A stretch of DNA of 36,387 nt from Bacillota bacterium (lineage in GTDB: Bacteria; Bacillota; Clostridia; Lachnospirales; Bianqueaceae): positions 1-36,387 of the forward strand of contig JAFUJY010000304.1 in the NCBI GenBank assembly GCA_017467985.1, read 5' to 3'. The notes below the pieces were generated by a model. That model did no database searches. It was not told the origin of the DNA and saw only the letters and a program-made list of their open reading frames with translations. Position numbers and translations under genes: made by a program. Within the stretch, counting starts at the first letter, position 1; the number at the start of each line of letters is the position of its first letter. Shown here piece by piece: positions 1,763 through 14,483 of the stretch.

Positions 1763-2456
1763 GATCATCATCTCCTTCCTGAACTGTATCCGTACGCAGT
1801 TCTCCATCCAGGATATGATAAATTTTATCTGCACAAGCGGCAATATTGGGCTCATGAGTAATCATAATAATGGTCATGCCCGCCTTATTCAAACTACGGA
1901 AGATGTCCATAATCTGATTCCCCGCCTTGGTATCCAGCGCACCGGTGGGCTCATCCGCCAGCAGCAGATCCGGATTGCCTGCGATGGCCCGGGCAATCGC
2001 CACTCGCTGACACTGTCCGCCGGAGAGCTGATTGGGCCGAAAATGCATTCTGTCTTCCAGCCCCACAGCCTTCAAGGCCTCTTCTGCCCGCTTTTTTCTC
2101 TGTTTCAAAGGCATGCCCGCATACAACAGCGGCAGCGCCACATTATCCAACGCGTCCATCTTGGGCAGCAAATGGAAATTCTGAAATACAAATCCAATAT
2201 GTTTATTACGAATGTCTGCAAGAGCATCGTCGGAAAGATTATCCAGATCCTTCCCATCCAGCTCATATTTGCCGGAGGTGGGTACGTCCAGACAGCCAAT
2301 CAGATTCATCAGCGTGGTTTTGCCTGAACCAGAGGGTCCCATAATCGCCAGATACTCGCCCTTTTCCACGGTCATGCTGATATTCTTCAGCACCCGCACC
2401 GGAACCTTACCCTGATAATACTCTTTGCAGATATCGGTCATTTTCAGGATCGACAA
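1752..2456 (-). CDS. ABC transporter ATP-binding protein, MacB/LolD-like
   Basis: Walker A GPSGSGKTT, signature LSGGQCQRVAIARA, Walker B LLLADEPTGALD. It abuts the upstream adaptor gene (stop at 2457, start at 2456). Confidence 0.93.
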   Translation of the reverse strand: MSILKMTDICKEYYQGKVPVRVLKNISMTVEKGEYLAIMGPSGSGKTTLMNLIGCLDVPTSGKYELDGKDLDNLSDDALADIRNKHIGFVFQNFHLLPKMDALDNVALPLLYAGMPLKQRKKRAEEALKAVGLEDRMHFRPNQLSGGQCQRVAIARAIAGNPDLLLADEPTGALDTKAGNQIMDIFRSLNKAGMTIIMITHEPNIAACADKIYHILDGELRTDTVQEGDDDHEA

Positions 2457-3614
2457 TTAGGCCACCTCACCTTCCGCGGCCGCCAAATTATGGGTGGTTG
2501 CCACACCTTCCTGACACAGTTCTCCATCTGGGAAAGCAATGTAGTCCTCTTCTGTCAGGCCGTCCAGAATCTCGTATGTATCCATGGCCATATTATACTC
2601 TCCCAAAAGCACCGTCCGCTTTTCCAGCTTATGGTCGTTTTCCGCCCACACGTAAGTACTGCCATCCTCATCATAGCATATGAAGGCGCTGCTGATGGAC
2701 ACACCGGTCGCTGCTTCTTCACCATTGTCCACTTCCATATACACATGCTGGCCCAGAATCAACCCTTCGGTGCTGTCCAATTCCACATAAAAGGGATACT
2801 TACTTGTGGAGGTCATTTCATCCACAACCTTACCATAATACATATCATAACCGTTGCCCTGGGAGGGATTCTCATAATCCACCAGTGTCACCGTCCCCAG
2901 CCAATACACACTCTCGTCCGTCCGAGAAACAATCTTCATGCGGGTGCCTTCCATAATGCCGCCACGCTGCAGCTCGCCAATGGTTCCCTGGATACGATAG
3001 GACCCAGCCTGCTGAATCACGATATACGCCAGAGGATTACCATAGTTGTCCGTTCCATTCTCATTTATGGACTGAATCCGCCCTGTTACCGGAGAATACA
3101 CAACCGCATTCTCCATAATGGACTCAGACTGGGCTACTGCATCCTCCTTGGCTGAAATATTCAGTTCTGCTTCTTTTAGTTCCACCTGCAGAGTCTGGAT
3201 CTGAATGGTATATTCCAGCTTGTCGTCGGAATCTGCATCCTCCCGATCCTCTTCCAAGTCCGCAATCTGCTCCTTATAGTTTTCAATCATAGCCCGCAGC
3301 TGATCAAGCTCCAACCGCTGTTTATCCAGCGTAAGCTGCAGCTGCTCCGTATCATAGGAAAACAGTTCCTGGCCCTCTGTCACATCATCACCGGCCTTCA
3401 CCAGCAACTCTCCCACAACCTTATCCACATCTTTGTGGACTTCTGCCACGTTTTCTGATACGACCATACCTGCGAAGCGATCTCCGGGTGCAATGCCGCC
3501 CAAATCCATCAGATCCGCCACGGACTGTACATACACCATACTTTCATCACTGCTGCATCCCGTCAGATTCAGCAGCAGGCATACCGCCAACACCAGTGCA
3601 AAAAACTTTTTCAT
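2457..3614 (-). CDS. Efflux adaptor (HlyD/MFP family) lipoprotein
   Basis: The track ORF runs to 3674, but MKKFFALVLAVCLLLNLTGCSS (lipobox LTGC) starts at 3614 behind AAGGGGGAA. It has coiled-coil repeats (LQLTLDKQRLELDQLRAMIENYKEQIADLEE) and a beta-barrel C-terminus. Confidence 0.85.
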   Translation of the reverse strand: MKKFFALVLAVCLLLNLTGCSSDESMVYVQSVADLMDLGGIAPGDRFAGMVVSENVAEVHKDVDKVVGELLVKAGDDVTEGQELFSYDTEQLQLTLDKQRLELDQLRAMIENYKEQIADLEEDREDADSDDKLEYTIQIQTLQVELKEAELNISAKEDAVAQSESIMENAVVYSPVTGRIQSINENGTDNYGNPLAYIVIQQAGSYRIQGTIGELQRGGIMEGTRMKIVSRTDESVYWLGTVTLVDYENPSQGNGYDMYYGKVVDEMTSTSKYPFYVELDSTEGLILGQHVYMEVDNGEEAATGVSISSAFICYDEDGSTYVWAENDHKLEKRTVLLGEYNMAMDTYEILDGLTEEDYIAFPDGELCQEGVATTHNLAAAEGEVA

Positions 3615-3782
3615 TTTCGTATTCCCCCTTCTAGCCCGGCAACACAAATTTAAACATATCCAGGCTTCTAACAATACAGTACGATTTCACGCGTCTGCGT
3701 TGCATCGTTTTAAAATTTTTCCCGTCCCCCTGTCCAGGATACTCTTATTGTAGTCTTTTTTCAGAAAAAATCAAGGGGATTC

Positions 3783-3811
3783 TTCACATGCAGCAAGATT
3801 TGTGCTATAAT
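3783..3811 (+). promoter_or_regulatory. Sigma-A type promoter for the patatin-like gene
   Basis: TTCACA (3783-3788), 17 nt spacer, TGcTATAAT (extended -10, TATAAT at 3806-3811). The RBS GAAAGGAGG precedes the ATG at 3844. Confidence 0.55.
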
Positions 3812-3843
3812 TATAGTATCTATCGAAAGGAGGATTTACTATC

Positions 3844-4752
3844 ATGAAAACTCATCCTCTTGGTCTTGTACTTTCCGGCGGCGGCGGCAAAGGTGCCTAT
3901 CAGATCGGTGCCTGGCGCGCCCTCATTGAAACGGGCTGGGACAGCCGTATTACTGCCGTTTCCGGCGCCTCTGTGGGCGCTTTGAATGCGGCTCTTATGG
4001 GCTGTACCGATTATGCCCAGGCTGAGCAGCTTTGGAAAAATATTACGCCTTTACAGTTTCTGGATATTGATCTTCCCCTGGAAGGAGACGGTATTTTTTC
4101 CCGAGAAGGACTGATTCAGCTGATCCGCGGCCATCTGGACCTGACCAAAATGGCCGCCTCTCCCCGGCGGATCTTTGCCAACACCACCCAGATTGACGGT
4201 GAAAATGACTACTGGGCCCGTTATTTTGAGCTGAATCATCAGTCCCCCGACCGCATACTCAAGATTTTGCTGGCATCCTCTGCTATCCCCGTGGCTTACC
4301 CTTCTGTCAATATTGACGGTACGCCCCACATGGACGGCGGTGTCATGGATAACCTGCCCGTCAAGCCCCTGTACGATATTGGCCTGCGCCACATGGTGGT
4401 GATTAATATTACTTCCGACGATGATCTGCTGATTCCCGCGGTATACCCGGGGACGGAGTTCGTGGAGGTGCGTCCCAGCCAGGATATCGGTCATCTTTTT
4501 GACGGTACGCTGGACTTCACCGCCCGGGGCGCCCGTTTTCGTATGGAGCTGGGTTATCGGAATACTCTGCGGACACTGCGGGCCTACGAATCCGGCCAGC
4601 TAGGCAAACCGGAGTATATGCGTAAGGCTGCCATCGACGCCCGTGCCGATTATGAGCAGATCCGTGTGGAGATGCTGCACGAGAACCTGAACAGCAATGT
4701 GAACCGGCACATGGACCAGTTTGATGCGATATTGAAGAAATATAATATATAA
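3844..4752 (+). CDS. Patatin-like phospholipase family protein
   Basis: Oxyanion motif LSGGGGKGAYQIG, nucleophile elbow GASVGALNA (GxSxG), catalytic Asp motif MDGGVMDNLP. Confidence 0.9.
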   Translation: MKTHPLGLVLSGGGGKGAYQIGAWRALIETGWDSRITAVSGASVGALNAALMGCTDYAQAEQLWKNITPLQFLDIDLPLEGDGIFSREGLIQLIRGHLDLTKMAASPRRIFANTTQIDGENDYWARYFELNHQSPDRILKILLASSAIPVAYPSVNIDGTPHMDGGVMDNLPVKPLYDIGLRHMVVINITSDDDLLIPAVYPGTEFVEVRPSQDIGHLFDGTLDFTARGARFRMELGYRNTLRTLRAYESGQLGKPEYMRKAAIDARADYEQIRVEMLHENLNSNVNRHMDQFDAILKKYNI

Positions 4753-4755
4753 TGT

Positions 4756-4797
4756 AAAAAGAGGAGACTGTAAATCACAATCTCCTCTTTCTTTTAG
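4756..4797. terminator. Bidirectional intrinsic terminator between convergent patatin and AAA ATPase genes
   Basis: A 10-bp stem AAAGAGGAGA (4758-4767) / TCTCCTCTTT (4781-4790) with a 13-nt loop. It has an A-run upstream and a T-rich tract downstream. Confidence 0.65.
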
Positions 4798-6017
4798 ATC
4801 ATCCAAATCGGCACAATGTAGTTATCCCGATCAATGGCCCCTAAGTCAGGTTTCATACAGATTATAGCTCCCTTGGAACGTGGCGTAGATGATTTGTCCA
4901 GCAGTTGAAATACTTTTATCAGTTCTGTCCCCGGATTCGACGTTTTCTTAATCTCAATTGGATTCAAGACTCCATCATGTTCCAGGACAATATCAATTTC
5001 CTTTGCATCTTTATCCCGATAATAATATATATACGGTTCTTTTCCACAGTTCAAATAAGTCTTTACAATTTCAGAAACCACATAGTTTTCTAAAACTGCA
5101 CCGTTCATCGCACCACTTTCCAAAGTCTGCGCACTACTCCATTTCGTCAAATAACAAACCAAACCGGTATCGTAAAAATATACTTTTGGTGTTTTCACAA
5201 GTCTCTTCAGCAAGTTGTTAGAATATGGATGGAGATAGAAAATAATCCCCAATGTCTCCAAAATTCCCAACCAATTCTTCACCTGAACCTGGCTGATATC
5301 AGCATCTCTTGCAATATCCGCTGCATTCAGCATCTGCCCGCATCTTGCAGCAACCGCCGTGATAAAATGCAAAAACTTCAACGAATCAATTGCATCAGAT
5401 AACTCTCTCACATCTCTCTCAATGTATGTGCTCAAATAACTGTTATAAAAAATCTGACTATTACTATTGACTCCACTTACAATTGCAGGCATCGATCCTT
5501 TGTAAATACGATTAAAAATCTCCCCTATATCCGCTTCTTTACGCCCCGCTTTTCTTAAAGATAATTTCTCCAAATCCACAGCAAAGGGTTCTGCGGCTCC
5601 GCCGTTAATCTCAGTTTGAGACAATGACGTCAAGGAGAGCAGCGCTACTCTACCCGCTAACGACTCCTGTACCCCTCTCATTAACTTAAAAACCTGTGAA
5701 CCAGTTAACCAAAATGCCCCCGCTTCATGGTATTTATCCACATATACCTTAATATAAGTAAATAACTCCGGCGCATATTGTACTTCATCTATTAAAATCG
5801 GCGGCTTATGCAGCTGCAAGAATAATTCCGGATCCTTCTTGGCAAGAGCTCTTTCATTTAAGTCATCCAGTGTCACATAGCTTCGATTTGTACCCTCCAT
5901 GAGCTTCTGAAGCATCGTTGTCTTTCCAACCTGTCTGGAACCAGTAACAAGAACCACCGGATATTCTTTTGTAACCTGACTTACCACATCTTCAAGGCTT
6001 CTCTTAATATAATTCAT
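4794..6017 (-). CDS. AAA-superfamily ATPase with C-terminal DUF4143-like region
   Basis: Walker A VLVTGSRQVGKTT and Walker B-like PILIDEVQ. I place the start at MNYIKR (6017), 5 nt behind GGAGG, rather than at the track start 6029. Confidence 0.8.
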   Translation of the reverse strand: MNYIKRSLEDVVSQVTKEYPVVLVTGSRQVGKTTMLQKLMEGTNRSYVTLDDLNERALAKKDPELFLQLHKPPILIDEVQYAPELFTYIKVYVDKYHEAGAFWLTGSQVFKLMRGVQESLAGRVALLSLTSLSQTEINGGAAEPFAVDLEKLSLRKAGRKEADIGEIFNRIYKGSMPAIVSGVNSNSQIFYNSYLSTYIERDVRELSDAIDSLKFLHFITAVAARCGQMLNAADIARDADISQVQVKNWLGILETLGIIFYLHPYSNNLLKRLVKTPKVYFYDTGLVCYLTKWSSAQTLESGAMNGAVLENYVVSEIVKTYLNCGKEPYIYYYRDKDAKEIDIVLEHDGVLNPIEIKKTSNPGTELIKVFQLLDKSSTPRSKGAIICMKPDLGAIDRDNYIVPIWMI

Positions 6018-6092
6018 AGCACCCTCCACTTTTCGCCAGTATATATTGATTCCAATGATATTATAACCGATTACAGCATAAAAATCAATCTA

Positions 6093-6135
6093 TTTTTCGG
6101 CTAAAATGTGTTCAGACAACATTTTAGCCGAAAAA
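6093..6135. repeat. 17-bp perfect inverted repeat (AT-rich palindrome) upstream of the AAA ATPase gene
   Basis: TTTTTCGGCTAAAATGT (6093-6109) / ACATTTTAGCCGAAAAA (6119-6135), with a 9-nt spacer. Confidence 0.8.
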
Positions 6136-9178: not shown

Positions 9179-10249
9179 ATGACAGGAAAAGAACGTACGC
9201 TGCGTATTTTGGCACACCAGCCGGTGGACCGCATTGGTTTATTTGAACATTTCTGGGGCGACACCCACAAAGCTTGGGAGGCCGAAGGGCATGTCCAGGC
9301 CAATGAATCCTACGAGGATCACTTTGGTTTTGACATGCAGGAGTGCTGGCCCTTTAATCTGGTGGCCGATCTGGATTTTGAACGCACCGTTGTGGCCGAA
9401 ACCGCTGAAACCATCACTTACCTGGATGGCAATGGTGCAACACTGCGCCGCCACAAACTCCACGATGCCACTCCTGAACATGTGGATTTTAAGGTTCAGG
9501 AACGGGAAGACTGGGAAGAAATCAAGCCGCTGCTGACACCCGATCCTCGCCGCATTGATTTTGAAGCCTATCGTAAGGCAAAAAAGGCTGCTGCTGAGGC
9601 CGGCCGCTTCTTTATGTGGTCCGGTATCAATGTTTTTGAATGCATGCACCCTGTTTGCGGTCACGAAAACATGCTGGTGGGTATGGCTCTGGATCCGGAG
9701 TGGATTGCCGATATGGCCATGACCTATGCCAAGCTTACCGTTCAGCTCCAGGAAATGCTTTTTGAGCAGGAAGGTTACCCCGACGGACTGTGGTTTTATG
9801 AGGACATGGGCTACAAGGGACACCCCTTCATGTCCCCTGCCATGTACAAGGACCTGATTCAGCCTGCCCACAAGTATACAATGGACTATGCCAAGAGCAA
9901 AGGATTGCCGGTTATCATGCACTCCTGCGGTTTTGTTGAACCGCTGCTGCCCGGTATGATCGAGGCAGGTATTGATTGTCTGCAGGTTATCGAGGTCAAG
10001 GCCGGCATGGATCTGCTGAAGCTCCACAAGCTCTATGGCGATAAGATCTCTTTCATGGGCGGTATTGACATCCGCACCCTTTATACCAATGACAAGGCCA
10101 TCATTGATAAGGAACTGGAATCCAAAATTCCGCTGGTCAAGGAAGGTTTTGGTTATTTCCTGCACAGTGACCACTCCATCCCCAAGACGGTCAACTACGA
10201 GACCTATCGTTACTTCATTAAGCGAGGGTTAGAACTGGGAACATATTAA
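9179..10249 (+). CDS. Uroporphyrinogen-decarboxylase (URO-D)/MtaA-like family protein
   Basis: 356 aa with the N-terminus MTGKERTLRILAHQPVDRIG and C-terminal SCG ... IEAGIDCLQVIEVKAGMD, typical of URO-D-fold proteins. The RBS is GGAGG. Confidence 0.65.
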   Translation: MTGKERTLRILAHQPVDRIGLFEHFWGDTHKAWEAEGHVQANESYEDHFGFDMQECWPFNLVADLDFERTVVAETAETITYLDGNGATLRRHKLHDATPEHVDFKVQEREDWEEIKPLLTPDPRRIDFEAYRKAKKAAAEAGRFFMWSGINVFECMHPVCGHENMLVGMALDPEWIADMAMTYAKLTVQLQEMLFEQEGYPDGLWFYEDMGYKGHPFMSPAMYKDLIQPAHKYTMDYAKSKGLPVIMHSCGFVEPLLPGMIEAGIDCLQVIEVKAGMDLLKLHKLYGDKISFMGGIDIRTLYTNDKAIIDKELESKIPLVKEGFGYFLHSDHSIPKTVNYETYRYFIKRGLELGTY

Positions 10250-10290
10250 AAAAAATAGCGCCAGGCTCAGTAAAGAGTCTGGCGTTTTTT
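10248..10290. terminator. Bidirectional intrinsic terminator between the URO-D-like gene (+) and the serpin gene (-)
   Basis: A 10-bp stem CGCCAGGCTC (10259-10268) / GAGTCTGGCG (10275-10284) with one G-T pair. It is flanked by an A8 run and a T6 run. Confidence 0.8.
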
Positions 10291-10305: not shown

Positions 10306-11550
10306 TTAAGCTGTGGGATTCTGGCATACGCCAATGAACAAATCTACTCCATCCAGGCTGCGCACACCGAAGATGAAGGGACGATCCAGATCCATCTCAA
10401 TCATGTTCTGTTCCGAAGGTATCAGCGATGTCTTGGTTGCAACCGCAATTTCAGTATATGCAGCCGCTTCCAGGCCCTGCTCATCCCATTCGATATGGGT
10501 TTTCTGGGTCACATTACCAACATATACATCTGTTTCGGTCATCTTGGAGAAGTCGGCGCCGCGAGAACATGCAGTAGCCAGCTTACCGGCAACATACTCG
10601 CCCAATTCCAAACTACAATCCATGCTCACTTTGGGGACAGACCAATTTACCAGACCATTCTTAGCAGTACCACCTCGCAGCGCTTCATCAAAGACTCTTT
10701 GATTAGACAGCAAGTCCTCGACGGTCACACCCTCTGCAGGCAGAATGAAGAAGGCCTTGCCGGTTTCACCCAGGGACAGTTCTCCTCTCATCCAGCCATC
10801 TCCCATCCAAACCTTGGATTCTTCTGAACGATACATGAAATCGGCTGTGATCTGTTTGCCATCAGCCAAGGTAAACGTATCTTCACCGGACTTGGAAAAC
10901 TCACCCTTCCAGCCATCCTTAATCCAAACCGTATTCAAAATGCTCAAAAACTGGTTGGGATTGGGGTTATATTCATATTTCAGCTTGCCGCCGGTATTTT
11001 CGGATACCCACTGGCCCATGGCCTGACCGGTAGCTGCGTCATCAAAATCCACATTGAACAAAGATGTGTAAAAATGATCCTTCATGGTCCGCTGGTAGGA
11101 GCTTACAAAGCCCCCATCCTCCTGCAGCCACAGGGAGTTGGCAATCTGCAGTACGCTTTCCCCCTCGCGCCAGTATAACCGGCGATACAGATTGCCGCAT
11201 TCCTCTGCGAAGTTTTCCACACAGTCCATGCCCAAGAATGAAACGAACTCATCCCGGGTGGCGCCATTTGCTCCCTCTCCACACATGGCCAGCGCATAAA
11301 ACAGGCTAATGGGACTGTACAGGCTATTTCCTTCCCCTTGAGCCAACAGTTCCGCCGCCGTCTGAGAACTAAACTTCTCCAGATTCTCCAAGAATTCCGG
11401 GGACACTTCTGCATCCCAGTCTCTTCCTTCCGGATACACCGCCTCGGCCACCACCCGTGTGCCCAGGCCCACATTTTCTTCAATTGTATTGCAGCCCATG
11501 ATGCTTGCCAGCATGACTGCGAGCATTAACCAAATCATATACCTCTTCAT
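10306..11550 (-). CDS. Serpin-family protein, predicted lipoprotein
   Basis: Signal/lipobox MLAVMLASIMGCNT, serpin N-terminal motif YSPISLFYALAMCGEGANGATRDEF, hinge EQGLEAAAYTE and C-terminal DRPFIFGV ... LFIGVCQNP. Confidence 0.88.
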   Translation of the reverse strand: MKRYMIWLMLAVMLASIMGCNTIEENVGLGTRVVAEAVYPEGRDWDAEVSPEFLENLEKFSSQTAAELLAQGEGNSLYSPISLFYALAMCGEGANGATRDEFVSFLGMDCVENFAEECGNLYRRLYWREGESVLQIANSLWLQEDGGFVSSYQRTMKDHFYTSLFNVDFDDAATGQAMGQWVSENTGGKLKYEYNPNPNQFLSILNTVWIKDGWKGEFSKSGEDTFTLADGKQITADFMYRSEESKVWMGDGWMRGELSLGETGKAFFILPAEGVTVEDLLSNQRVFDEALRGGTAKNGLVNWSVPKVSMDCSLELGEYVAGKLATACSRGADFSKMTETDVYVGNVTQKTHIEWDEQGLEAAAYTEIAVATKTSLIPSEQNMIEMDLDRPFIFGVRSLDGVDLFIGVCQNPTA

Positions 11551-11563
11551 AATTTTCTCCCTC

Positions 11564-13015
11564 TTATTCTTTTGTCGGATCCATACAGGTTCCTATAAAT
11601 AATACATTGTCGTCATTGTCCAGGATTGCGTACAGGAAGGGACGGTTCAGGATCATGTCCACATGTCTTTCTGTTAACCCCTCTGTCTTATATGCAGTAT
11701 ACGCTGCTGCTTCTGTACCATTCTCATCAATTAGCAAGCGTATTTTTTGCGTGACACTGCTCAGCACCGCTCCCTCACTATTTTCTGCGATACTAGAATA
11801 ATCCGCATTATCTCCAAACGCAGTATCTGCGCCCATCTTTGCCAACACTTCCACCAGATCCATATATTCTTCACTGATGAACTTTGGAACTTTCCAATTT
11901 ACTATATGATTCGTTCCTTTAACTCCCTTAAAAATCTTGGTTAGTCTGGCAGGATCTTGTACAATCTCCTGCACACTGATTCCCTCATTGGGCAGAACAA
12001 AAACCATCTCTCCATCCATCAAAGATAATGTTGCTTTTGTATAATCATCCCCAACATATGCAGCCCCCATTTCCTCTCGCGTCATGAATGATGCCTGAAC
12101 CCTCTCTCCATTATCCAGAACGAACTCGTCCATGATCGTTGCTTCCTTTTTGAAAGCGAGCATCCATGGACTCTTATAATAAATTGTGTTTAACATTGCC
12201 AAATCCCCGTCAATGGGGCTATATTCCAACACTCCGTAAGTCTTTTCTGCAATCCATGCTCTCAATTGACCTATCATCTCTGCAGATGTCATTTTACCGG
12301 TGAAAACCTCTGCATTTAGGCGTGTTGTTATGATATCCTGAAAACTTGCATTCACTTCTCCATAGCTTTCGTCGATCCACATGGAATTGGCAATCGATAT
12401 CGTTGAAAACCGATTATTAATATTATGTTTCTCCAACAACCTTTCTGCCTTGATCAGCAAACTTTCCAAGCTTGACTCGCCCAGAATCGTCAACAGCTCT
12501 TGCTGAGTCTCCCCCTCTGCTCCTACTGCAGCCAATGTGAGTGCATAATACAGACTCATAGGACTATACAACTCATTGCCTTCAGACAAGACCATTGATG
12601 CAGAGAGATAGGTGAACTCATCCATTGTCCATGGCTCTCCCTTTTCCACCAATTCTGCTGTCTTTACATTGCTGCCGGAAGTCTGCTGATCATTCTCCGT
12701 CTTTGCGGATGTCATCTTAGATGACTCTTGTTCCTCGGCCGTCTCTACCTTCATGACCTCGCTGGTCTGAGTCACATCCGCCCTGGAATCCTCCAACAAC
12801 ATTTCTTCTTTTTTGGTTTCCAGACTTCCACCAAATAACCATCCTCCTGACTGCTCCCAGGCTATTAAACTGCCGCACATCAATACCAGGCATGCTGCCA
12901 ATCCCACAAACTGCCGCCATGGTGATCGGTGCCGGCGCACCGGAGCCTCGTCAGCTTCTTCGATAAACTGATCGTCCAGCAGCTCCAGTGCGTCTAACAG
13001 ATCTTGTTTCTTCAT
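11564..13015 (-). CDS. Membrane-anchored serpin: short cytoplasmic N-terminus, one TM, linker, extracytoplasmic serpin domain. It sits in the anti-sigma position.
   Basis: The N-terminus MKKQDLLDALELLDDQFIEEADE is followed by the TM FVGLAACLVLMCGSLIAW. The serpin domain shows YSPMSLYYALTLAAVGAEGETQQEL, hinge ENGTEAAAYTA and NRPFLYAI ... LFIGTCMDP. Its ATG overlaps the sigma gene stop (ATGA). Confidence 0.85.
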   Translation of the reverse strand: MKKQDLLDALELLDDQFIEEADEAPVRRHRSPWRQFVGLAACLVLMCGSLIAWEQSGGWLFGGSLETKKEEMLLEDSRADVTQTSEVMKVETAEEQESSKMTSAKTENDQQTSGSNVKTAELVEKGEPWTMDEFTYLSASMVLSEGNELYSPMSLYYALTLAAVGAEGETQQELLTILGESSLESLLIKAERLLEKHNINNRFSTISIANSMWIDESYGEVNASFQDIITTRLNAEVFTGKMTSAEMIGQLRAWIAEKTYGVLEYSPIDGDLAMLNTIYYKSPWMLAFKKEATIMDEFVLDNGERVQASFMTREEMGAAYVGDDYTKATLSLMDGEMVFVLPNEGISVQEIVQDPARLTKIFKGVKGTNHIVNWKVPKFISEEYMDLVEVLAKMGADTAFGDNADYSSIAENSEGAVLSSVTQKIRLLIDENGTEAAAYTAYKTEGLTERHVDMILNRPFLYAILDNDDNVLFIGTCMDPTKE

Positions 13016-13569
13016 ACCGAGTATCCCTCCTTCAGCAAAACATCCCTCAGCTTGTTACGCAGCCGGAAAAGCATGGATTTCACCTTACTCTGACTCATCC
13101 CAAAACTGCGGCTAAGCTGATCAATCGAATCAAAATACCAATAACGACGTACAAAGAGCTTACGCTGCTCTTCAGGTAACGTCCCCAAAAAATGATTAAT
13201 GTGCCCCGCCAATTCCTGTGCATCGTATGCGGACTCAGCAGTCTCCACTGCACACAGCGTTCCCTCTAATTCGTCCAGCGACACATCCGCCTCGCTGCAG
13301 CGCTTGGCAGCGTGATTGTACTCGCTGCGCTTGAGCGCCAAGTTGCGCACGATGCGCTTGATAAATGCAGACAAAATATTGGGGCGTTCCGGCGGAATCC
13401 GGTTCCACAGCGCCAAGTATGTATCGTTGAGACATTCCCGAATATCCTCTGGATCCTTGAGGATATTGCCCGCAACTTTCATACACATACCGCCATACCG
13501 GCTCTGAACCTCTGCGACCGCGTCTTCGCTTCGGCGCCAGAACAAATCGATGATCATCTGATCTTCCAT
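13012..13569 (-). CDS. ECF-type (group IV) sigma-70 family RNA polymerase sigma factor
   Basis: 185 aa. Region 2 is DTYLALWNRIPPERP and region 4 HTH is SIDQLSRSFGMSQSKVKSMLFRLRNKLR. The RBS is GGAAAGGAGGG. Confidence 0.9.
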   Translation of the reverse strand: MEDQMIIDLFWRRSEDAVAEVQSRYGGMCMKVAGNILKDPEDIRECLNDTYLALWNRIPPERPNILSAFIKRIVRNLALKRSEYNHAAKRCSEADVSLDELEGTLCAVETAESAYDAQELAGHINHFLGTLPEEQRKLFVRRYWYFDSIDQLSRSFGMSQSKVKSMLFRLRNKLRDVLLKEGYSV

Positions 13570-13623
13570 GCTTTCCCTCCTTTCCGGCCTTCACCTATAT
13601 AGTACGGTTTTCTTACCCTTGGT

Positions 13624-13664
13624 TGCAAAAAAACTGCAGAAAAATTTTCCTGCAGTTTTTTTGC
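13624..13664 (-). terminator. Intrinsic terminator ending the long minus-strand GH-MocR-AKR operon
   Basis: Minus strand reads AAAAAAACTGCAGGAAAATTTTTCTGCAGTTTTTTT, about a 9-bp stem followed by a T7 run, immediately after the stop at 13665-13667. Confidence 0.8.
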
Positions 13665-13835
13665 TTACATCTGATGTCTTACAATGGCATACTCATCATC
13701 TGATTGGAAATAGGGGCAGCCCTGATTGGACCCAGCCAGGAAGCGGGCCATTTCGTCTTCGTCCAGATTGATCATACAAGTATAATATCCGCCAAATTCG
13801 TCATAAACATAATGAGCACAATATTCGCACTGCAT
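13665..13835 (-). CDS. Small 56-aa four-cysteine protein (below the ORF-track size cutoff)
   Basis: MQCEYCAHYVYDEFGGYYTCMINLDEDEMARFLAGSNQGCPYFQSDDEYAIVRHQM has a CxxC ... C ... C pattern. The ATG lies 3 nt after the upstream stop (TAAACCATG) and is followed by the terminator. Confidence 0.6.
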   Translation of the reverse strand: MQCEYCAHYVYDEFGGYYTCMINLDEDEMARFLAGSNQGCPYFQSDDEYAIVRHQM

Positions 13836-13838
13836 GGT

Positions 13839-14483
13839 TTACGCCCCTTTCTTGGCTCGGCGTGTGGTTACATAATAGGTAAAGGCACCGCCGGCCACCA
13901 GTAATACAACCCAGAAAATACGGGTCTGCCATTCTTTTTCCGCAGCAGAAGGCCGCTCCTGGATCTCCGCAAAATAGATGCTGTCCACAATGGCCAGGGG
14001 ATCTGCCTCCTCAAGGGGCTCCTCTGCAGAGAAAGCCAATGTGTAGGCCTGACCGTTCATGGCCGTGTAAAACTGCAGACCATACTTTTTCGTACCATCC
14101 TCAGCCGTCTTCTCCCAGGTAAACTTCAGCCATTTTTCCTTTTCTTTGGTATAAAGAGCTCCGGTCACATTCTCGTAACCACCTTCGGTCAAAGTTTCCT
14201 TTAAAGAATCAATCAGCTCTTCACATTCTTCATCCTCGTAGAGGGCCAGGTTCCACTGATTCTCGCTCACTTTACCGCTTTGAGCTGTTAAAACCATCAT
14301 TACGCCCTGGGGACTCAGCGCTTTCATCACCAATCCCTCTTCATTTGCCAGGCGTTCCCAGCCATCGGGCAGGGTGATGGTGGCACGGATATTTCCCAGT
14401 ACAATGTCCTGGGCTGCCTGCACCGGTGCGCTCACCAGCAAGACCAGTGCCAAAATCATACTGATAATCTTAAATTTCTTCAT
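13839..14483 (-). CDS. Hypothetical exported protein with a C-terminal membrane anchor
   Basis: N-terminal signal MKKFKIISMILALVLLVSAPVQA and C-terminal TM IFWVVLLVAGGAFTYYV followed by basic residues. No recognisable catalytic motif. Confidence 0.6.
   Translation of the reverse strand: MKKFKIISMILALVLLVSAPVQAAQDIVLGNIRATITLPDGWERLANEEGLVMKALSPQGVMMVLTAQSGKVSENQWNLALYEDEECEELIDSLKETLTEGGYENVTGALYTKEKEKWLKFTWEKTAEDGTKKYGLQFYTAMNGQAYTLAFSAEEPLEEADPLAIVDSIYFAEIQERPSAAEKEWQTRIFWVVLLVAGGAFTYYVTTRRAKKGA

Follow-up and report, generated by a model that had tools for sequence, protein, structure and literature searches.

A 36,387-nucleotide stretch of DNA from a gut or rumen bacterium of the Clostridia (Bacillota; Lachnospirales; contig JAFUJY010000304.1 of assembly GCA_017467985.1; the whole stretch is referred to here as the window) encodes, in three consecutive genes on its minus strand, an extracytoplasmic function (ECF) sigma factor, a serpin anchored by a single transmembrane (TM) helix (serpin-1), and a lipoprotein serpin (serpin-2). 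The best reading of this arrangement is that the three genes constitute one self-inducing operon. On balance, and with moderate confidence, we favor the view that serpin-1 is an RsiV-like receptor anti-sigma factor bearing a working serpin as its ectodomain, and that the locus as a whole forms a protease-responsive circuit that induces its own expression. Directly observed are the gene layout and domains, the conserved adjacency of sigma and serpin, the promoter motif, and a hinge of inhibitory type in the serpins.

The sigma gene (13569..13012; this and all other features of the operon lie on the minus strand) is an open reading frame (ORF) of 185 amino acids (aa) that runs into the serpin-1 gene (13015..11564; 483 aa), the stop codon of the former and the start codon of the latter overlapping in GTATGAAG (ATGA at 13015..13012). 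Serpin-2 (11550..10306; 414 aa), probably the effector copy, starts 13 nt past the serpin-1 stop codon and is preceded by a ribosome-binding site (GAGGGAG). An initial inspection made without database searches, referred to below as the sequence-only reading, had described the overlap, the succession of short cytoplasmic segment, TM helix, linker and serpin domain within serpin-1, and the second, lipoprotein serpin, and all of these were confirmed where that reading had placed them. The identical three-gene locus is present in a second metagenome assembly, and the same operon is found at a syntenic locus (L010) from a goat-omasum metagenome-assembled genome (MAG), the sigma factor of which is 57% identical to that of the window.

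The sigma factor is composed of sigma-2 and sigma-4 domains only (Pfam Sigma70_r2, residues 24-81, and Sigma70_r4_2, residues 127-174) and scores 63.4 bits against the NCBIfam model TIGR02937 (sigma70-ECF; cutoff 42.9). By these profile matches and by its length, within the approximately 170-200 aa usual for such factors, it is a member of the ECF group (group IV) of the sigma-70 family. The co-transcribed, single-pass regulator by which ECF sigma factors are also recognized is represented here by the ATGA overlap with serpin-1 and by the conservation of the partner described below. Against the NCBIfam equivalogs (SigV, SigW, SigM etc.) every score of the window sigma falls far under the cutoff, and the PDB holds no sequence relative of it at E<=1e-3. 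A scan with an alignment of the sigma family, restricted to one genome per species, returned more than 590 matches, and the loci of the best 80 were retrieved. Nearly all of these 80 relatives are labeled as Clostridia (Oscillospiraceae, Lachnospiraceae, Ruminococcus, Christensenellales), and many derive from gut or rumen MAGs. Two of the 80 loci lie on contigs with other labels, L073 (Barnesiella intestinihominis) and L030 (Terriglobales); mis-binned MAG contigs are the more likely explanation for both than true occurrence outside the Clostridia.

Central to the proposed function of serpin-1 is its N-terminus. Residues 1-32 (MKKQDLLDALELLDDQFIEEADEAPVRRHRSP; 12920..13015) comprise an acidic amphipathic helix-Gly-helix and, after it, a basic stretch, and residues 33-55 (12851..12919) comprise a W-x-(K/R)-(W/F) interface motif, here WRQF, and a single TM helix, which AlphaFold models as one helix spanning residues 33-55 and which holds Ala40-Ala41-Cys42 (12898..12890). 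The AlphaFold model, built with 28 homologues (mean predicted local distance difference test, pLDDT, 75.7), places short helices at residues 3-11 and 15-19 and leaves the basic stretch unstructured. A profile of 57 positions, constructed from this shared serpin N-terminus and used in an exhaustive HMMER search of 1.84 billion representatives, recovered at least 8,886 clusters at E<=1e-3 and 337 at E<=1e-10; among the best 150 of the 8,886 the match begins nearly always at residue 1, in proteins of 47-900 aa. The pattern common to 219 of the sequences consists of an initial Met-Lys, an acidic amphipathic segment, a Lys/Arg run at positions 27-30, Trp33-x-Lys35-Trp36, and a TM helix. Within the amphipathic segment hydrophobic residues are conserved at positions 6, 7, 10, 13, 17, 18, and 21, together with Gly11, Asp14, Asp15, Glu20, and Ala21, and in the TM helix Ala40 (99%), Ala41 (99%), and Cys42 (84%) are conserved. 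Those members that lack a serpin are labeled "hypothetical protein" by NCBI. The N-terminal segment, which the sequence-only reading had taken for a peculiarity of this serpin, is thus a generic module, with which thousands of proteins lacking a serpin also begin, these being encoded after sigma factors of the same clade. Two matches that had appeared of interest were set aside: P0212, with the module at residues 131-172, is a chimeric ORF and not a fusion, and P0224 is a probably unrelated repeat protein, perhaps matched by chance through its acidic amphipathic helices. The latter, of 681 aa, carries ten copies of a motif (…HEALLQALGEVEPEEVDEAQ…) that matches profile positions 2-23, and has no TM helix.

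The partnership between module and sigma factor is close. Firstly, in approximately 75 of the 80 sigma loci the ORF directly downstream of the sigma gene opens with the module; the offset is -4 in most cases, and the proteins range in length from 111 to 750 aa. Secondly, the relationship holds in the reverse direction, as two non-serpin proteins picked by the module only, P0148 and P0154 (900 and 817 aa), each have a 186-aa sigma factor upstream with a 4-nt overlap. Additionally, pairwise distances among the sigma factors correlate with those among module residues 1-30 (Mantel r = 0.43; maximum of 999 permutations, 0.11), and the module co-diverges with its sigma. The domains that accompany the module provide a further line of evidence: in L013 it stands upstream of DUF4179, and in L082 it is followed by a TM helix, RsgI_M, and four PepSY domains, an RsgI architecture in which the module replaces RsgI_N. 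Because of these two arrangements the module can be said to occupy the slot of known anti-sigma N-domains.

Comparison with characterized regulators is consistent with this placement. A class I anti-sigma domain (ASD/ZAS) consists of four helices in approximately 80-90 residues, and an HxxxCxxC zinc motif is often present. The cytoplasmic part of serpin-1, at 32 residues, is no such domain, and neither zf-HC2, RskA, nor any other anti-sigma model of Pfam or NCBIfam matches the protein, nor does it contain a His/Cys motif. RsiV, a validated anti-sigma factor, has its TM helix at residues 37-59 and only approximately 36 cytoplasmic residues; serpin-1 is of this type, having a short cytoplasmic segment and one TM helix and being encoded directly after a sigma gene. 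The earlier remark that the segment is shorter than canonical ZAS/RsiW domains was therefore accurate as to its length and, given RsiV, presents no obstacle. In E. coli, RseP cuts RseA between Ala108 and Cys109 and thereby exposes a degron for ClpXP (a C-terminal Ala-Ala), a site that the Ala-Ala-Cys of the module resembles. Genome comparisons as a whole lend good support to an anti-sigma role for serpin-1. On the strength of its anti-sigma slot, its RsiV-like size, and this resemblance, the module is probably an anti-sigma domain, in which case residues 1-32 of serpin-1 would be the segment that binds sigma. Ala40-Ala41-Cys42 is by the same analogy a candidate site-2 protease cleavage site and degron; the tripeptide is compatible with a site-2 cut and proves nothing about one.

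An improbable alternative is that the N-terminal segment is a signal anchor or sorting sequence that makes no contact with sigma, and that the sigma factor, regulated by other means, merely transcribes adjoining genes for surface proteins. Consistent with this alternative are the absence of detectable homology to known anti-sigma domains and the moderate model confidence of the cytoplasmic helices (pLDDT 62-72). A plain anchor, however, needs neither an acidic amphipathic helix in which eight positions are conserved nor a nearly invariant Ala-Ala-Cys, both maintained across at least 219 proteins, and it would account poorly for strict translational coupling to one sigma clade and for co-divergence with that sigma. 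A further argument comes from locus L098 (161..4419), in which the sigma gene is followed by a module-serpin of 481 aa, a HAD-type hydrolase, and a second anchored serpin, P0088, a duplicated effector copy that has kept the Lys/Arg stretch and TM helix of the module while the conserved helix has been replaced. Comparison of the two serpins shows that, as far as sequence can tell, anchoring does not need the module helix; because P0088 retains its anchor in the absence of that helix, the helix would appear to have another job.

The ectodomain of serpin-1 is a serpin alone, and Pfam detects none of the domains DUF4163, DUF3298, or DUF4179 in it. It is carried on residues 56-126 (12638..12850), an extracytoplasmic tether that is disordered, acidic, and Ser/Thr-rich according to its composition (15 D/E, 8 K/R, and 17 S/T) and its pLDDT, which remains below 50, with means of 24-35 for ten-residue blocks over residues 61-120. 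Residues 127-483 (11567..12637; Pfam Serpin at residues 144-480, E 1.6e-56) are modeled at a pLDDT of approximately 90 and display an exposed, flexible loop of low confidence at residues 435-448. The best fold matches of the model are native miropin (5ncs) and native tengpin (2pee), and these same bacterial inhibitors are the closest sequences in the PDB. The hinge and reactive-center loop, located by alignment, span residues 431-448 (11725..11672). The hinge itself reads ENGTEAAAYTA (residues 431-441), with Glu431 at P17, Gly at P15, Thr at P14, and Ala-Ala-Ala at P12-P10, in line with the consensus of inhibitory serpins (Glu at P17, Gly at P15, Thr, Ser, or Val at P14, and small residues at P12-P10); the loop has the canonical P17-P1 length of 17 residues and is exposed in the model, and the P' side is as long as in alpha-1-antitrypsin. 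If the P17-to-P1 count of alpha-1-antitrypsin (17 residues) is applied, Leu447 would be the P1 residue and Thr448 the P1' residue.

Serpin-2 (Pfam Serpin at residues 57-412, E 1.2e-53) begins with a signal peptide and lipobox (residues 1-20; 11550..11491; MKRYMIWLMLAVMLASIMGC), the lipobox being IMGC at residues 17-20 with its Cys at residue 20, which fits the [LVI][ASTVIM][GAS]C pattern of bacterial lipoproteins. Its hinge and reactive-center loop (residues 357-374; 10482..10429) contain the hinge EQGLEAAAYTE, in which P17 is Glu357 and P14 is an atypical Leu; P1 is predicted by the same count to be Lys373, and the P' side is six residues longer than that of alpha-1-antitrypsin. The orthologue of serpin-2 in L010, also a lipoprotein, is 43% identical to it. 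Taken together, these features support the prediction, made from sequence, that both serpins are of the inhibitory type. Serpins that do not inhibit proteases exist, and an anchored serpin that binds ligands or acts in a chaperone-like manner might sense something other than proteases. P9, a Tyr in both serpin-1 and serpin-2 where a small residue would be expected, is consistent with this possibility, which we nevertheless regard as very improbable in light of a hinge that fits the inhibitory type at P15, P14, and P12-P10, a loop of canonical length that is exposed in the model, and nearest solved relatives, tengpin and miropin, that are inhibitors.

The sequence-only reading had also placed a serpin in the position of an anti-sigma factor and had held that the idea would be refuted if that adjacency were confined to this genome; the refutation clearly fails. 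Adjacency of a sigma gene and an anchored serpin is found at no fewer than 13 distinct loci, 11 of them with the exact 4-nt overlap, amid unrelated neighboring genes; the pairing extends to many Clostridia and to two ECF lineages, and its recurrence in unrelated neighborhoods led us to reject chance adjacency. Four serpins with only 27-36% identity to serpin-1, for example, each have a sigma factor of 185-186 aa directly upstream with a 4-nt overlap, again in unrelated neighborhoods, and these sigma factors are 36-44% identical to that of the window. Among 120 clusters of serpins related to serpin-1, its N-terminus is found in 15 and a lipobox type in 92, while a few have other anchors; module-serpins occur, furthermore, in at least nine additional genomic loci. 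The inhibitory hinge, which the same reading had noted, is kept together with a full-length loop in 24 of 25 module-anchored serpins as judged by alignment, with E-x-G-T-E-A-A-A-Y-T conserved among the anchored serpins, while the residues at P4-P4' are hypervariable among the same 25. A second serpin downstream proved to be a less general feature, being present in the window, L010, and L098 and in no other sigma-serpin locus seen.

The distribution of these serpins suggests repeated acquisition. Serpin-linked sigma factors form at least three groups, with some singletons besides, and because the nearest sigma relatives of the singletons have non-serpin partners, domain shuffling of serpins among module partners is suggested. 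In a second ECF lineage, sigma factors of 193-199 aa that are approximately 24% identical to the window sigma also have serpin partners, of which P0032 and P0029 bear a distinct cytoplasmic N-terminus of approximately 60 residues followed by a TM helix. Because these two serpins follow a sigma that is only 24% identical and carry a different N-domain, serpins are, on this sequence comparison, recruits to the post-sigma position in two ECF lineages. In two loci of the second lineage, L096 (2433..4722) and L100 (2451..4470), the sigma gene overlaps the serpin gene by 32 nt, an independent instance of sigma-serpin pairing, and in L096 an ISL3 transposase gene adjoins the pair. At L095 (2455..3947) a 62-aa ORF consisting only of the module precedes a 253-aa partial serpin and is itself preceded by a 154-aa ORF with no Pfam match; probably a sigma-serpin locus has here been frameshifted or has decayed, or else the long-read assembly is at fault.

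Evidence for the proposed self-induction comes from the region upstream of the sigma gene, where a match to the family consensus, TTTGCAACC-N15-CGTACTATATAGGTGAAGG (13588..13629), forms a predicted ECF-type promoter directly upstream of the ribosome-binding site of sigma. The consensus, ATGCAAC(C)-N15/16-cGnaGTATATAGGTGAArGG, was built from the regions upstream of 85 sigma loci, and the window copy (TGCAAC-N15-CGTA) contains the AAC-type -35 and CGT-type -10 elements of ECF promoters. A strict anchor, the conserved TATAGGTGA block from which the usable promoter model was derived, occurs in 28 of the 85 loci where shuffled sequences predict 1.6; a plain AAC-N14-17-CGT expression was set aside because of its weak enrichment (16 of 85 vs. 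approximately 6). When the whole 36-kb window was scanned with the position weight matrix (PWM), one strong copy was found, scoring 36.8 bits at 13629..13588, with a runner-up at 12.4 bits and a 99.99th percentile of 7.7. The promoter is probably autoregulated, and the sigma-serpin-serpin operon is the sole predicted target of the sigma factor within the window.

Directly downstream of the CGT-type -10 lies a TATATAGGTGAA(A/G)GG block (13588..13606, minus strand) that is conserved more strongly than either the -35 or the -10 across the window and the upstream regions of L010-L089. No Rfam family matches at this block, which could be an extended -10, a transcription start region, or a leader element. 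A second-tier PWM match of 12.1 bits (GATGCAAC-N15-CGTACT; 3665..3706, minus strand) lies just upstream of an ORF (3674..2457) whose counterpart in L090 belongs to a YknX-like efflux/ABC transporter operon. Its -35 and -10 cores agree with the consensus and the downstream TATAGGTGAA block does not; the match could serve as a promoter, either for the window sigma or for a different ECF sigma.

The operon lies between hairpins. A terminator scan found none inside the sigma-serpin-1-serpin-2 unit and identified a bidirectional intrinsic terminator that closes it (10257..10286; 12-bp stem with 7 GC pairs), which is common to a convergent URO-D-like gene (9179..10249) and has a T-run on the minus strand as well. 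On the upstream side, direct reading of the sequence reveals a hairpin with a T-run (CTGCAGGAAAATTTTTCTGCAGTTTTTTT; 13625..13664, minus strand) at the end of a DUF6472 gene, a structure predicted to isolate the sigma operon transcriptionally; it was missed by the scan because its loop exceeds 8 nt, and Rfam gave only a sub-threshold match of palindrome type there, on both strands. Within the operon Rfam found no RNA element. The DUF6472 gene encodes a Cys-rich protein of 56 aa (13665..13835, minus strand) and is preceded by a gene for a 214-aa protein with a signal peptide and a C-terminal TM helix (13839..14483, minus strand); L010 also has a gene for a 219-aa membrane protein, together with a GntR-aminotransferase gene, upstream.

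These observations can be assembled into a working model, in which three steps are inferred: the binding of sigma by serpin-1, its regulated intramembrane proteolysis, and triggering by proteases. At rest, the acidic amphipathic N-terminus of serpin-1, 32 residues in length, would hold the sigma factor at the membrane while an inhibitory-type serpin would be displayed on the cell surface. The signal would be extracellular serine proteases that consume or strip the surface serpin, whether through covalent trapping at the reactive-center loop or through cuts in the disordered tether; proteolysis that removes the ectodomain or tether is as plausible a trigger as attack on the loop. The stub left over would become a substrate for a site-2 protease, which would cut at the TM Ala-Ala-Cys, and degradation of the cytoplasmic remnant would free the sigma factor. 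Transcription by freed sigma from 13629..13588 would then yield more sigma, more of the sensor serpin, and serpin-2, an output that would differ from serpin-1 in its predicted P1 residue (Lys vs. Leu). With a suicide inhibitor as the receptor, output would be matched to protease load. Tether length varies among homologues (60-157 residues from the end of the TM helix to the YSP motif); since the tether itself ranges from approximately 10 to 100 residues, a long one would not be required, and the notion of a long disordered tether as universal bait was rejected for a related reason, its length ranging from almost none to approximately 100 residues.

Several points weigh against this model. Site-2 proteases present one difficulty: these enzymes normally need a shortened ectodomain, and formation of a serpin-protease complex does not by itself shorten it, nor does serpin-1 contain an obvious AxA or signal-peptidase site past its TM helix. 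The module is covered by no model in Pfam or NCBIfam and shows no detectable homology to validated anti-sigma domains, and the P1 residues of both serpins have been assigned by the spacing rule only. Beyond these points stands the main rival explanation, in which serpin-1 is indeed an anti-sigma factor and the serpin is mere cargo on a generically triggered chassis. According to this explanation, the signal would be one common to the module family, such as envelope stress or the action of some site-1 protease, and the fusion would serve only to couple production of a surface serpin to that signal or to set its level by negative feedback.

In support of such an explanation, the serpin is, by domain annotation, one of many ectodomains on a common signaling chassis, the others including PepSY, RsgI_M, DUF4179, DUF3298, beta-propeller, BNR, LRR, and Ig-like domains, and approximately 85% of module ectodomains contain no Pfam domain at all. 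Because the same module carries mostly uncharacterized ectodomains, the family-wide trigger may be generic and unrelated to proteases. Individual loci point in the same direction. L069 (4001..6478) encodes a sigma factor, a 211-aa module protein without a serpin domain, and then a lipoprotein serpin, and thus looks like an unfused version of the system in which the serpin is output and not sensor. L047 has two module-serpins (2221..3858 and 4558..6123) and a sigma gene at 4001..4561; in the downstream copy that follows sigma, L047dn, the one exception among the 25 anchored serpins, the inhibitory hinge has been lost (…AFGVSGREFLNVP…), and this protein may act as a sensor without inhibiting, or may be a copy undergoing decay. 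The inconstant length of the tether may be added to this list. Set against these considerations are the recruitment of serpins to the post-sigma position in two unrelated ECF lineages, each with its own N-domain, their recruitment also into several sub-clades of the window sigma family, the retention of an inhibitory hinge in all but L047dn, and the precedent of the validated relatives RsiV and RsgI, in which the ectodomain is the sensor. The serpin is also the commonest recognizable ectodomain on the module, at 10 of 77 partners and 5 of 73 module proteins, samples that are biased toward serpin-linked queries. Weighing both sides, we consider the cargo explanation possible but rather unlikely, and retain the protease-responsive receptor as the favored reading.

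A bolder version of the receptor reading can be put forward only tentatively, and we think it doubtful. In this version the stressed-to-relaxed switch of the serpin, or covalent capture of the protease at its reactive-center loop, would itself be the transmembrane signal that permits intramembrane cleavage of the anchor. The module would represent a class of anti-sigma domain that is new, minimal, and, with at least 8,886 clusters, very large; invisible to annotation, this class would wire dozens of surface ectodomains to dedicated ECF sigma factors in gut Clostridia. If true, this would be the first case of signal transduction in bacteria in which a serpin serves as the receptor.

The closest functional precedent for the proposed circuit is RsiV/sigma-V (ECF30) of Bacillus subtilis, Clostridioides difficile, and Enterococcus faecalis, in which RsiV is the receptor for lysozyme and undergoes regulated intramembrane proteolysis, with ligand-gated cleavage at site 1 by signal peptidase preceding that by RasP. 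Both systems would combine an ECF sigma with a co-transcribed, short, single-pass anti-sigma factor, an ectodomain that is the receptor for a harmful host enzyme, and a self-induced operon; a few module proteins, moreover, carry DUF4179, typical of anti-sigma factors of Firmicutes, or DUF3298, the ectodomain of RsiV. The differences are equally clear. In serpin-1 a covalent suicide inhibitor, the serpin, takes the place of DUF4163 plus DUF3298 as the ectodomain; the N-terminal motif is distinct and not detectably homologous, and no signal-peptidase site is evident; the window sigma reaches no named NCBIfam equivalog; and the regulon seen here is the inhibitor itself and not a set of cell-wall modification genes. 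The RsgI/sigma-I systems of Bacillus and cellulolytic clostridia are similar in another respect, being modular, single-pass anti-sigma factors of Firmicutes whose sensor ectodomains are interchangeable and whose paralogues are numerous within a genome, and three partners of the window sigma clade have RsgI_M right after the TM helix. They differ in possessing RsgI_N where a short module is found here and in pairing with sigma-I where a canonical sigma-2/sigma-4 ECF sigma is found here, and serpin-1 is without RsgI_M. RseA/sigma-E of E. coli, with its proteases DegS and RseP, shares the principle that extracytoplasmic proteolysis starts the cascade, and the cut in RseA at a TM Ala/Cys site may be compared with the Ala-Ala-Cys of the module; RseA, in contrast, has a full class I domain of approximately 90 residues, relies on the site-1 protease DegS as its sensor, contains no serpin, and belongs to a Gram-negative bacterium.

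Regulated serpin production has a precedent in Bifidobacterium breve, where proteases induce serpin expression via an adjacent two-component system. There, too, a gut bacterium raises serpin output in response to proteases by means of a dedicated regulator encoded beside the serpin gene, but sensing is performed by a histidine kinase and response regulator with the serpin as a separate protein, whereas here sensor and inhibitor would be one polypeptide linked to an ECF sigma. Stand-alone bacterial serpins, such as tengpin, miropin, and the siropins, share the fold and inhibitory hinge of serpin-1 and include its closest solved structures, and the lipobox N-terminus that is commonest among the serpin matches (92 of the 120 clusters) is that of serpin-2. 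In the literature searched, none of these stand-alone serpins is reported to carry a sigma-linked cytoplasmic module or to be encoded in a sigma operon.

Searches of the literature for serpins in connection with anti-sigma factors, ECF or other sigma factors, intramembrane proteolysis, or genomic context returned nothing relevant; the paper reclassifying ECF sigma factors makes no mention of serpins, and reviews of gut serpins make no mention of sigma factors. The individual parts, namely the ECF sigma, the single-pass anti-sigma factor, and the inhibitory serpin, are known, and it is their fusion that appears to be undescribed, as does the size of the unannotated module family. Whatever its trigger, this very large family of sigma partners links many uncharacterized surface domains to dedicated ECF sigma factors, and because the class of ligand bound by a serpin is predictable, the serpin-bearing members offer a tractable entry point to the family. 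Bacterial serpins are already studied as modulators of intestinal proteolysis in inflammatory bowel disease (IBD), and the present locus may bear on how clostridial serpins are regulated. If the favored reading is true, gut and rumen Clostridia would own a one-protein sensor-inhibitor that measures the external load of proteases, whether these are of pancreatic or neutrophil origin in the host or are microbial, and that answers with the production of more inhibitor.

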